Assembly: GCF_029910655.1 (NCBI RefSeq) | Contig: NZ_CP123897.1 | Coordinates: 2,011,547-2,035,546, forward strand | Direction: 5' to 3' | DNA length: 24,000 nt | DNA from: Methylomonas sp. UP202 | Lineage (GTDB): Bacteria > Pseudomonadota > Gammaproteobacteria > Methylococcales > Methylomonadaceae | Part shown: positions 19,400 to 23,257 of the stretch, one piece after another | Layout of the letters: every line of letters begins with the position of its first letter | Numbering within the stretch: position 1 is the first letter of the stretch | Made by a program: the position numbers and the translations under genes | The notes under the pieces: generated by a model | Seen by the model: the letters and a program-made list of their open reading frames with translations, nothing else | Told to the model about the DNA's origin: nothing | Database searches by the model: none

Positions 19400-19486
19400 C
19401 CGTTAAGTTTGAGTTAAGAGCCCGATGCGATATTTTTCTCTAATAGAACCGAATTCAATTTTCTAACGATTAGAGGGATAAACCGA

Positions 19487-19789: not shown

Positions 19790-19963
19790 AATTCAAAATT
19801 TCTAGCCTCTGTTTGGTCAGCAGTCTATTAACAGCGTCTATATCAATAGGTCGAAAGAAGCGAAGATAGTGTCCATTTATAATGAGGTGGACATCGAGCC
19901 GCGCATCTATCTTGTCGCGTTGTTCCGTCAATTGAATCGGGGTTCACTGATTTTCGTGAGCAG

Positions 19964-20167
19964 GTGCTTTTCTCTGGGCAAAGCGGCCCTGACTACAAAG
20001 CAAAGGTCGCCAAACTTTCAGATCAGGATAAAGATCGCTTTCTTTATCAAGAATTCGTTCGCGCCAAGCATGCCGAAAGGATTCGCGCATGGATTATGGG
20101 GCAAACCAAAGATCAACTGGGTATCCGCGACTCGCCGCAAACCGCTCTAACCCACCGCGACCGCTAA
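19964..20167 (+). CDS. possible small CDS or gene remnant
   Basis: GTG start with a weak RBS. The stretch GPDYKAKVAKLSDQDKDRFLYQEFVRAKHAERIRAWIMGQ is charged, helical and protein-like. It overlaps the 19869..20150 ORF in another frame, so it may be a frameshifted remnant. Confidence 0.25.
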   Translation: MLFSGQSGPDYKAKVAKLSDQDKDRFLYQEFVRAKHAERIRAWIMGQTKDQLGIRDSPQTALTHRDR

Positions 20168-20236
20168 TGGGATATCCGGCTGGCCGCCGGAGCAGCGCTT
20201 TCAACGCAAATCCGGCAATTAACGCGGTTCCCAGTC

Positions 20237-20519
20237 TCGATCGCAACGCAAAAAGTCTATCCCGCAACACTAAAAGTGATTCTCGCAACGCTTCGAGCAA
20301 TACACGCAAGGCTCCAAGCCTTGCGCATAACACTAAAAGCCTTGCGCACAAGGCAAATAGTGATTCCCGCAACACTAAAAGAGTTGCGCGCAATTCTCCG
20401 AGCAATAAACGCAAGGCTCCGAGCCTTGCGCATAACACTAAAAGCCTTGCGCGTAAGGCAAATAGTGATTCCCGTAATACTAAAAGAGTTGCGCGCAAAG
20501 CTCCGAGCAATAAACCCAA
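20237..20519. repeat. 14 phased 21-bp periods with TTGCGCGCAA-type decamers (105-bp higher-order unit), iteron-like or centromere-like array
   Basis: Decamers start at 20237, 20258, 20279, 20300, 20321, 20342, 20363, 20384, 20405, 20426, 20447, 20468, 20489 and 20510. Position 6 (C) and positions 9-10 (AA) are invariant. The perfect palindrome TTGCGCGCAA occurs at 20384 and 20489. Confidence 0.85.
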
Positions 20520-20821
20520 GGCAAAAAGCGGGACGGACGGGGATTTTCATTTACGGCGGCAAGTATGTTGCCGTTCAGGCTTCGATAGGACGCTTGCATA
20601 TTCCGGTCAAACCACCCAGCGATTCCGACTTCAAAACCGCCAGGCATTCCGGTCGCAAAGCGGTTGTCGATTCGAACCCAAAGTCGGCCATCGATTCCGA
20701 TACCATTACGCCGGTAGTGAATGACGGCTTTTGGAAATGGCGAATTGACGCGAACGACCCGTTGCGGACTATCGCTCGCTCCATCTGATTCAATGGCAGC
20801 AATTTGACCATTACCGGCCAT
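20480..20821 (-). CDS. possible small ORF with 8-residue periodicity (hypothetical), paralogous fragment at 23115-23257
   Basis: 113 aa. Its only support is the synonymous-biased differences between the two repeat copies in this frame. There is no SD sequence, and the C-terminus runs into the tandem array. Confidence 0.3.
   Translation of the reverse strand: MAGNGQIAAIESDGASDSPQRVVRVNSPFPKAVIHYRRNGIGIDGRLWVRIDNRFATGMPGGFEVGIAGWFDRNMQASYRSLNGNILAAVNENPRPSRFLPWVYCSELCAQLF
20529..20760. repeat. dispersed repeat, copy 1 (contains a 105-bp insertion relative to copy 2)
   Basis: The blocks GGACGGGGATTTTCAT..GCGGCAAGTATGTTGCC (20529-20572) and CCAAAGTCGGCCATCGATTCC...GACGCGAACGACCC (20678-20760) match 23115-23257. 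Confidence 0.85.
20600..20717. repeat. five degenerate 24-bp tandem repeats starting ATTCCG/ATTCGA
   Basis: Units start at 20600, 20622, 20646, 20670 and 20694. Each has ATTC(C)G followed by a CAAA-containing core. Confidence 0.6.
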
Positions 20822-20896
20822 TATTACTTATCACTAATGATATACGTAGAGGGAAATCATATGCTAATCATGAAACGTAGCTCTACGTAGACATCC

Positions 20897-22512: not shown

Positions 22513-22716
22513 ATGAAAACCACTATTTCCCTGGACAACACCGTACTGGAACAACTGCTGACTTACACTCAAGCCAAAACCACCAAGGAAAGTATCGCCA
22601 AAGCCATTGAAGAATACATCCGCTTTAAGCAGCGTCAAGAATTGCTGAATTGCCGGGGAGCAGTCGATATTGAAGACAACTGGCAAGCATTACGGGATTT
22701 GGAACGTCCATCATGA
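22513..22716 (+). CDS. vapB: type II antitoxin VapB (DUF2191-like)
   Basis: MKTTISLDNTVLEQLL...KESIAKAIEEYIR is the typical VapB opening. I placed the start at the ATG at 22513, which is 9 nt after AAGAGG. The ATG at 22504 abuts the SD. The stop overlaps the vapC start (ATGA). Confidence 0.8.
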   Translation: MKTTISLDNTVLEQLLTYTQAKTTKESIAKAIEEYIRFKQRQELLNCRGAVDIEDNWQALRDLERPS

Positions 22717-23100
22717 AACGGGTATTGATCGACACCTGTGCCTGGATCGATTTTTTCAAATCAAAAAATGGTCAATTAGGTGATCAGGTTGTGGCGTTAA
22801 TTGAATCTAACCAAGCCGCAATAACGGGTGTAGTTGTCGCGGAATTGCTACAAGGCGTCAAACAGGAGAAGGAAAGCCAGCGCTTTAAAGCTACTGTTTC
22901 GTTCCATACATTATCTGCCAACCGAAGATAGCGATTGGTTCGCGGCTGGTATACTTGCCCAACAACTGCGAGCAAAAGGTTTAACCTTGCCGTTGACCGA
23001 TGTTTTAATTGCCGTCATCGCTCAGCGGCATGCCATGAAGGTTTTAACCCTGGATAAACATTTTCAACACCTTCCGGTTGAGCATTTTTGCGGCGGGTAA
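22713..23100 (+). pseudogene. vapC: PIN-domain toxin VapC, interrupted by a +1 frameshift
   Basis: The N-terminal part is MKRVLIDTCAWIDFF...VVVAELLQGVKQEKESQR in frame 0, which stops at 22929-22931. The remaining PIN motifs LLFRSIHYLPTEDSDWFAAG...LPLTDVLIAVIAQRHAMKVLTLDKHF are in the +1 frame (ORF 22834..23100). The switch must lie near 22880-22890, in CGCTTTAAAGC. Confidence 0.75.
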
Positions 23101-23114
23101 ATTAAAGAACCAAC

Positions 23115-23257
23115 CGGATGGACGGGGATTTTCATTGAGGGTGTCCTGAAATTTGCAGCGGCAAGTGTGTTGCCCCAAAGTCGGCCATCGATTCCAATAC
23201 CATTACGCCAGCAATGAATGACGGCTTTTGGGAATGGCGAATTGACGCGAGCGACCC
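23115..23257. repeat. dispersed repeat, copy 2
   Basis: It matches 20529-20572 plus 20678-20760. It starts 15 nt after the vapC stop. On the minus strand the homologous frame has an upstream in-frame TAG and no start codon, so it is a fragment. Confidence 0.85.

Follow-up and report, generated by a model that had tools for sequence, protein, structure and literature searches.

A 21-bp tandem array in Methylomonas sp. UP202, possibly the hairpin-forming and expandable module of a mosaic non-coding repeat

A stretch of 24,000 nucleotides from Methylomonas sp. UP202 (contig NZ_CP123897.1, positions 2,011,547 to 2,035,546; hereafter, the window) carries a tandem array of 14 units of 21 bp, and the question raised by this locus is what kind of element so regular an array represents. 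In the initial annotation, made from the sequence alone, it was interpreted as an iteron-like or centromere-like array of protein-binding sites. According to the data presented here, the array is, with a probability of about 0.5, a hairpin-forming and expandable tandem module of a mosaic non-coding interspersed repeat; this statement refers to its way of working and not to membership of the BOX or BIME families. Positions are those of the window unless another contig is named.

The 14 decamers on which the initial annotation was based, and their start coordinates, were matched exactly on re-reading, and the unslipping 21-bp register that it described was confirmed as 14 exactly spaced units (20237-20530). 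The self-identity of the array at a lag of 21 bp was 0.59, compared with 0.266 ± 0.026 (maximum 0.355, n = 2000) in shuffled sequences, and at a lag of 105 bp it was 0.84, compared with 0.265 ± 0.032; the 21-bp periodicity is far above chance. Tandem Repeats Finder detected a period of 105 bp between 20260 and 20522 (2.5 copies, 89% matches, 0% indels, score 421) as well as 21-bp sub-arrays, and thus recovered the 105-bp higher-order unit already proposed, which is composed of five unit types (a-e). In each 21-bp unit, two 9-nt arms, the first CGCAAGGCT-like and the second AGCCTTGCG-like, enclose a 3-nt spacer (CCG/CCA or AAA/AAT), and the directional pattern nTnnnCGnAAnnCnnnnAGnn is what all units share. 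The decamers had been described as palindromic; all 14 are in register, but the perfect palindrome TTGCGCGCAA is present in only 2 of them. Dyad axes, as read from the units, lie at the centres of TTGCG-CGCAA and of CTnnnAG and are spaced 10.5 bp, because the unit is built as arm, spacer and arm (9 + 3 + 9 nt). The inverted repeat with 9-bp arms noted previously, CGCAAGGCTCC(A/G)AGCCTTGCG, is present at 20305-20325 and 20410-20430. The array motif was not found scattered elsewhere in the window or in a 20-kb locus of Methylococcaceae bacterium WWC4.

Homologues of the array were located through protein searches with its open reading frames (ORFs), followed by retrieval of the contigs encoding the annotated "hypothetical proteins". 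The array is not private to this strain, a possibility that had been left standing at first, as homologues are present in four further Methylococcaceae genomes: Methylomonas sp. MED-D (contig L039), with 14 units at the same, syntenic locus and 98% identity; Methylomonas koyamae (L043), with 8 units and the same left context as in the window; Methylomonas sp. LWB (L042), with 17 units, in which two a-b-c-e blocks of 84 bp precede a block of 105 bp; and strain WWC4 (L025), where scaffold gaps interrupt at least 16 units lying 430 bp downstream of secG and tRNA-Leu. The exact 21-bp register was maintained in 61/61 units over the five genomes, and thus the arrays differ in length by whole units. 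The array always lies within the same non-coding module of ~630 bp, which is found in two contexts. In the window, MED-D and M. koyamae, the module starts at the equivalent of window position 20128, in the last codons of a truncated HD-CE-domain pseudogene; homology to the other array loci begins at this position, within the last 13 codons of ORF 19964..20167. In WWC4, secG, tRNA-Leu and an unrelated small ORF precede the module; LWB has the same small ORF and left flank, and its contig (2.8 kb) ends before any tRNA. Among the neighbours at the five loci, no gene is common to both contexts. Searches of 72,556 plasmids and 50,697 phages by blastn and tblastn did not detect the array, and a metagenome scan and two viral scans with the array 19-mers AAGGCTCCRAGCCTTGCGC and CTAAAAGAGTTGCGCGCAA gave single matches only, none of them in an array.

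As had been pointed out, four overlapping ORFs remain open across the array, 20089..20724 (+), 20276..20788 (+), 20094..20519 (-) and 20257..20550 (-), and since 21 bp corresponds to seven codons, a heptad-repeat protein could be read in frame +1 (20089..20724, SLAHNTK/SDSRNTK), in frame +2 (LKALRxR) or in the minus frame of 20094..20519 (LRATLLV). Column entropy is greatest where third codon positions would fall in frame +1 and in the minus frame of 20094..20519 (1.26 vs 0.78 and 0.54), an AGGA motif is located 7 nt ahead of the ATG at 20089, and annotators have called the ORFs P0001, P0002, P0006 and P0012 here. However, the annotators' frame differs between genomes, being +1 in WWC4 and +2 in MED-D, LWB and M. 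koyamae, and the WWC4 homologue P0001 passes from window frame +1 to +2 over a 1-nt indel just downstream of the array. For the 17 substitutions between the window and WWC4, synonymous and nonsynonymous counts corresponded to the random expectation in all six frames, in none of which was purifying selection detected, and the effect of codon phase on column entropy, with all units pooled, was not significant (p = 0.10). The array ORFs matched no family of Pfam or NCBIfam, and from 1.84 billion proteins, searched exhaustively with phmmer, only spurious ORFs of the same DNA module were retrieved. Similar arrays of Rhodanobacter and Pseudoxanthomonas, described below, lose the frame by 1-nt indels. 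Given the inconsistent frames, the random substitution counts and the lack of homologues or families in these searches, the array was concluded to be non-coding, in agreement with the initial annotation, and a heptad-repeat protein is highly improbable.

The array changes faster than its surroundings. The alignment of the window with MED-D comprised 49 differences over 3336 positions, without indels: 10 in the 294 bp of the array (3.4%), 13 in 20600-20699, 10 in the second copy of the 166-bp element described below, and ~8 in 2.1 kb of genes (0.4%), so that sequence turnover in the array is about 10 times that of the flanking genes. Several of the variants between the window and MED-D also occur in WWC4, in line with conversion. 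Within unit types, columns c4, c6 and c7, at the GCGC centre of TTGCG-CGCAA, accumulate 11 of at least 28 substitution events, and this hot spot at the palindrome centre could be due to hairpin-loop mutagenesis or to deamination of methylated GCGC. The changes recorded between strains at the palindrome centre were C>T at c4, C>G or C>A at c6, and G>A at c7, for example at 20347, 20452 and 20494. Fast turnover, whole-unit changes and a central hot spot fit a recombining, hairpin-prone minisatellite. With respect to folding, both strands were more stable than shuffled sequences (z = -4.8 and -3.8), and three hairpins (H1-H3, Table 1) were 92% paired over seven aligned 105-bp units.

The interpretation favoured here can be formulated as follows. 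The array would be a higher-order minisatellite, the expandable inner part of a mosaic module of ~630 bp (20128-20760) which sits in an island of low G+C content, abuts the HD-CE gene and appears to have replaced its 3' half. With units built as arm, spacer and arm, neighbouring units could pair in two registers, and the whole array would be nearly self-complementary. Its length would change by whole 21-mers or by blocks of 84 or 105 bp, presumably by replication slippage or unequal recombination between units, and gene conversion among the units, together with mutation at the centres of the palindromes, would account for its sequence turnover. No dedicated partner gene would be needed in cis, and any effects would be structural: the array might form stem-loops, either in DNA or in transcripts reading through it, act as a hot spot of recombination at an island junction, or block transcription. 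If this is correct, the array represents a previously undescribed repeat family in methanotroph genomes, and it illustrates that a selfish or structural repeat can acquire exact helical phasing and palindromy even when it has no partner gene. In practical terms, it would serve as a variable-number typing marker; it also disrupts assemblies and gives rise to spurious "hypothetical protein" annotations, and four database proteins of this sort were traced to it. Its importance would be greater if the invariant positions and the lattice of dyads every 10.5 bp reflect a trans-acting protein. The array is located where defence and toxin-antitoxin cargo differs among strains, and similar arrays are found in another gammaproteobacterial order, the Xanthomonadales.

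Intergenic arrays of 21/42 bp built on TTGCGCGCAAGGC were detected in Pseudoxanthomonas and Rhodanobacter through the hairpin 19-mer AAGGCTCCRAGCCTTGCGC. Among 17 genome-contig matches, true 21/42-bp arrays were recognised in L009, L014 and L018, and a looser cluster in L013; the matches other than L009, L012-L014, L017 and L018 are single hairpins or coding sequence. The coordinates are 5918-6146 in L014 (Pseudoxanthomonas), 2456-2776 in L018 (Rhodanobacter), 1661-2107 in L009 (Pseudoxanthomonas suwonensis) and ~2820-3060 in L013 (Aquabacterium). The Xanthomonadales arrays share with the Methylomonas array the 19-mer AAGGCTCCGAGCCTTGCGC, the 21-bp period and the intergenic location, and L018 also has the CTCCGAG/CAAAAAG spacers, but they differ in being GC-rich, in a higher order of 42 bp instead of 105 bp, in the presence of 1-nt indels and in their flanks. 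These indels indicate that the Xanthomonadales arrays are non-coding and that their phasing is not strict. The L014 array is followed immediately by a Y1_Tnp (IS200-like/RAYT-like) pseudogene (E = 3e-11) that carries an internal stop; the pseudogene adjoins the array on one side only. The similarity between the Methylomonas and Xanthomonadales arrays may be due either to homology or to convergence. The Xanthomonadales TTGCGCGCAAGGC arrays were not described in the literature searched, where a search for TTGCGCGCAA also returned nothing relevant. In two contigs of Acidobacteria metagenome-assembled genomes (L012, 1777-1910; L017, 2822-2874), the 19-mer is part of an in-frame 21-bp PSLAPQR repeat (x6 and x2.5) in a coding gene, which we take from its sequence to be DUF1223-like; these repeats are a coding look-alike, probably unrelated to the array.

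The behaviour proposed for the array has its closest parallels in two families of interspersed repeats. In BOX elements of Streptococcus pneumoniae (boxA-boxB(n)-boxC), the number of tandem boxB units is variable, ORFs are open in both directions, other repeats are found clustered with the elements, strains differ from one another, and length change has been ascribed to unequal crossover (PMC3049150). The array module is likewise composite and non-coding, with an inner tandem module of variable number, ORFs open on both strands, predicted stem-loops and small repeats as neighbours. In contrast, BOX elements possess terminal inverted repeats, target-site duplications, more than 100 copies per genome and a boxB unit of 45 bp, whereas one array per genome was seen here, its unit is 21 bp with a higher order of 105 bp, and its sequence is not similar to that of BOX. 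Enterobacterial BIMEs, with their tandem REP doublets, behave in a comparable manner (PMC3686654). As in BIMEs (REP/RAYT), the array is made of extragenic, short imperfect palindromes with alternating pairing registers and short linkers, and the similar Pseudoxanthomonas array adjoins the Y1_Tnp pseudogene; but neither the window nor the Methylomonas loci contain a RAYT, the GTAG/GTGG head of REP is absent from the unit consensus nTnnnCGnAAnnCnnnnAGnn, and the array motif is not scattered through the window or the WWC4 locus.

Several data weigh against a minisatellite of this kind. Positions A9, A10, C13, A18 and G19 are invariant in 61/61 units, which suggests a constraint beyond neutral drift, and the five unit types, although diverged, are all exactly 21 bp long. 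Six columns are invariant in the window, and c6 was the only one of them to be hit by any of the at least 28 events recorded among the genomes (binomial probability ~0.02, a partly circular estimate). The L014 array, with eight exact TTGCGCGCAA decamers, 21-bp spacing and variable spacers, resembles a protein-binding array. Compensatory base changes were not observed in the hairpins over the seven aligned 105-bp units; no target-site duplication was present at the junctions examined; and, in a search for terminal inverted repeats, the left arm aligned with the reverse-complemented right side no better than shuffles did. With one array per genome seen and two contexts overall, dispersal of the array itself is not shown, and to our knowledge no mobilising enzyme is known for the array module.

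The alternatives in which the array is a set of binding sites or a transcript have to be weighed against this background. The array could be a phased lattice on one face of the helix for a dimeric DNA-binding protein supplied in trans, with a centromere-binding or silencing protein, a repressor, or a transposase or recombinase acting on the 166-bp element as candidates. The geometric argument of the initial annotation is sound in this respect: the exact register over five diverged unit types and five genomes, the invariance of nTnnnCGnAAnnCnnnnAGnn and the dyads 10.5 bp apart are genuine. The eight exact decamers at 21-bp spacing in L014 (9 matches vs 0.8 expected), the alternating CTCCGAG/CAAAAAG spacers of the 42-bp L018 array, and the start of 24-bp ATTCCG repeats at a defined terminus of the 166-bp element, like the subterminal binding sites of transposon ends, point in the same direction. 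The opposite is indicated by the absence of a linked rep, par or DNA-binding gene in 5/5 loci, by the absence of the array from plasmids and phages, by the range from 8 to 17 units and the roughly tenfold turnover, and by the fact that mutability is highest at the palindrome centre, the part to be recognised by a dimer; moreover, 1-nt indels break the phase of the Xanthomonadales arrays (85-bp period in L018, 5-8% indels in L014 and L009). Such a lattice is a possible, if doubtful, explanation. The iteron or centromere idea is a special case of it, in which the array would be the remnant of an integrated replicon. Iterons are typically 3-8 near-identical copies. Like iteron origins, the array has direct repeats in the range of ~17-22 bp, spaced by about two turns of the helix, and in the window an AT-rich stretch is close by; it differs in its 14 units with a five-type higher order, in that no Rep-like domain was found in the window or at the four other loci, in that the AT-rich stretch (20820-20896) is unlinked in the other genomes, and in its absence from the plasmids and phages searched. 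It also has tandem repeats with inverted repeats and sites phased on one helical face, as partition centromeres do, parC (R1/pSK41) and sopC (F) being tandem repeats with short inverted repeats in arrays of ~10 sites (PMC5016525). However, centromeres adjoin a parA/parM-parB/parR operon on their replicon, whereas the array is chromosomal, has no par gene at the five loci, is absent from the 72,556 plasmids, and is polymorphic in unit number and fast in turnover. An origin or centromere identity was not supported: the array is chromosomal in five genomes and two unrelated contexts, without a shared gene, and has 8, 14, 14, 17 and at least 16 units. Neither ORF suggested as a partner held up. 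ORF 19964..20167 is a truncated 3' piece of the HD-CE pseudogene, and the 100-aa ORF is missing at the LWB and M. koyamae loci; in WWC4 it was not called between tRNA-Leu and the array, where a scaffold gap is located. Among the sequence features of centromeres and iterons that were compared, the array has only the repeat geometry.

A role as RNA, either as a multi-hairpin non-coding RNA or as a module of an untranslated region (for example, a protein sponge, a stabiliser or a terminator array), would be compatible with the strong folding of both strands, the plus strand offering A-rich single-stranded linkers (ACACUAAAAG) and the minus strand units of a hairpin plus a U-tract. Five independent one-sided changes in the hairpins all give G.U pairs on the plus strand and A.C mismatches on the minus strand (~1 in 32 if both outcomes are equally likely), three terminator-like sites of hairpin and T-run are present on the minus strand, and in WWC4 and Rhodanobacter the array is downstream of a minus-strand gene. 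But Rfam 15 gave no match at the gathering score, nor any at E ≤ 10 beyond microRNA-type noise (E ≥ 0.14), no promoter-like site adjoins the array on either strand, compensatory pairs are lacking, and the orientation with respect to neighbouring genes is inconsistent among loci, with a highly variable number of units, all of which makes an RNA role unlikely. A CsrB/Rsm-like sponge, considered for the GGA motifs on the minus strand of both repeat zones, was rejected for the lack of an Rfam match and of a promoter or GacA-type box, and for its variable copy number. It is also rather improbable that the array and the 166-bp element constitute together a cis-acting site, served by a protein supplied in trans, and a junction for swapping defence or immunity cargo. 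The lattice of 10.5-bp dyads and AA/C/AG invariant positions would then load a recombinase, a transposase or a ParR/omega-like protein, and cassettes would be exchanged at 20760 (SMI1-VapBC here, a PARIS-like DUF4435/AAA_15 pair in M. koyamae); on another M. koyamae contig, an HNH/MC7-MC6/DUF2326 set is found between two copies of the element. In that case, the Xanthomonadales TTGCGCGCAAGGC arrays would mark a wider, undescribed class of binding arrays. The expandable structural repeat proposed above is preferred here over these alternatives. The features of the locus are listed in Table 1.

Table 1. Features of the array locus, with positions in the window
Feature	Position	Strand	Evidence and remarks
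Array, 14 units x 21 bp	20237..20530		Tandem Repeats Finder, direct reading, self-identity
Hairpin/palindrome H1, CGCAAGGCT-CCA-AGCCTTGCG	20305..20325; second copy 20410-20430		Inverted-repeat search; 95% of cells paired in seven aligned 105-bp units
Hairpin H2 GCCTTGCGCACAAGGC, GCCTTG-CGCA-CAAGGC	20339..20354; second copy 20444-20459		All cells paired, counting plus-strand G.U
Palindrome H3 AGAGTTGCGCGCAATTCT, AGAGTTGCG-CGCAATTCT	20380..20397; weaker second copy 20485-20502		86% of cells paired
Left unique arm of the non-coding module, starting with GACTCGCCGCAAACCG	20128..20236		Matched in LWB (starting at L042 position 987) and, beginning at 20193, in WWC4
Junction, 64 bp, with hairpin CGGCAAGTATGTTGCCG at 20557-20573	20531..20594		Conserved in L025, L039, L042 and L043
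Dispersed element of 166 bp, TGCATATTCC...GACGCGAACGACCC	20595..20760		Five 24-bp ATTCCG units and a right part; fixed end points
Leader segment upstream of the SMI1 gene	20761..20845	+	Common only to plasmid copies L005 and L006; unlinked to the array elsewhere
Second partial copy of junction and 166-bp element, without array	23116..23257		Self-BLAST, 92.9% over 84 bp, and two short pieces
3' fragment of HD-CE-domain pseudogene	19933..20127	+	Pfam HD-CE match limited to profile positions 86-121 (profile length 263); truncated by the repeat module

Within the module, the flanks to the left of 20128 are unrelated between contexts, the left side in WWC4 being a scaffold gap, and the array is always followed by the junction and then by the 166-bp element. 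Junction positions 20531-20572 recur at 23116-23174; the copy at 23116-23257 has no equivalent of 20573-20676 and is located at the right edge of the low-GC island. The 24-bp repeats reported downstream of the array were confirmed as five ATTCCG units (~20597-20716), and Tandem Repeats Finder detected the same period in MED-D. The 166-bp element is multi-copy in chromosomes and plasmids of Methylomonas, Methylotuvimicrobium and other Methylococcaceae, and its end points recur amid unrelated flanks in L004, L026, L027, L040 (three times), L041 (twice), L042 and L043. Its ATTCCG repeats begin at a defined TGCAT terminus. Pairs of the element were observed in inverted orientation around a Peptidase_C92 gene in L040, and in direct orientation flanking SMI1, a 256-aa ORF and VapBC in the window, and HNH_2-CTD11, MC7-MC6 and DUF2326 in M. 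koyamae (L041). An AT-rich segment (20820-20896) had been associated with the array; this connection was not maintained, as homology stops at 20746-20760 in WWC4, LWB and M. koyamae, and the segment is outside the array module because the sequence to the right of 20760 differs between genomes. When the boundary at ~20760 was compared with those at ~1111 in L043 and ~1682 in L042, it looked like a cargo-swap junction. To its right, the cargo consists of SMI1, the 256-aa ORF and VapBC in the window and MED-D, and of a 259-aa ORF and a DUF4435/AAA_15 (PARIS-like) pair in M. koyamae L043.

Two known classes of mobile ends were considered for the 166-bp element. An integron attC was rejected, as no RYYYAAC/GTTRRRY cores were seen by eye at the TGCATATTCC and GACGCGAACGACCC ends, and no intI was found; a Tn3- or Tn7-type transposon end, which the TGCAT terminus and the inverted pair in L040 would suit, is doubtful, as there was no linked transposase and most pairs were direct. 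The right boundary of the copy in L005 is the insertion of a Tn3-family inverted repeat. In the M. koyamae plasmid pFW12EY (L026, 2700-3000), an unannotated ORF, which we take from its motifs to be an IS5-like transposase, breaks off at ...VEHVFAWM, exactly at the TGCATATTCC terminus of the element.

The G+C content of the window falls from ~58% to ~48% near 19400 and remains low almost until the window end; by gene content, the low-GC island extends to ~23300, from a FemAB-like gene to the ATP synthase operon. Its genes comprise small ORFs, SMI1/KNR4, VapB and a VapC in two pieces, and it also includes the IS66 remnant described below. Outside the island, the window is ordinary chromosome, including an N-type ATP synthase operon. 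On the large ORFs of the window, Pfam recognised TrxB-like, FtsK, GntR, PfkB, KdpD/E, radical SAM, ABC transporter, FemAB-like, SMI1, VapBC and ATP synthase subunit families, and thus supported the earlier statement that the window has no rep, par, integrase or cas gene. In two public runs, short-read contigs stop at ~20346 and start again at ~20632, and therefore the repeats break short-read assembly.

In MED-D, an upstream HD-CE piece matches profile positions 15-52. The HD-CE gene persists only as frameshifted, 3'-truncated fragments (window 19933-20167; L039 4466-4847; L043 53-644), and the MED-D remnant is ~605 bp longer than that of the window, the extra DNA being placed at window position 19934. 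Upstream, at 19812-19893, there is a left-end remnant (~80 bp) of the IS66 family, 83-86% identical to the DNA just upstream of IS66 tnpA in the M. koyamae plasmid pLM6 (L029) and in LWB (L042), which were used for this comparison. Between 20860 and 20897, a nine-codon mini-ORF (MLIMKRSST*) with a GAGGG Shine-Dalgarno sequence stops 8 nt short of the SMI1/KNR4 start codon, GTG; it is located within AT-rich palindromes and may act as a leader of, or in translational coupling to, the SMI1/KNR4 gene. The VapC (PIN) toxin gene 3' of vapB is present as two overlapping ORFs, 22713..22931 and 22834..23100, and is probably frameshifted (22713-23100).

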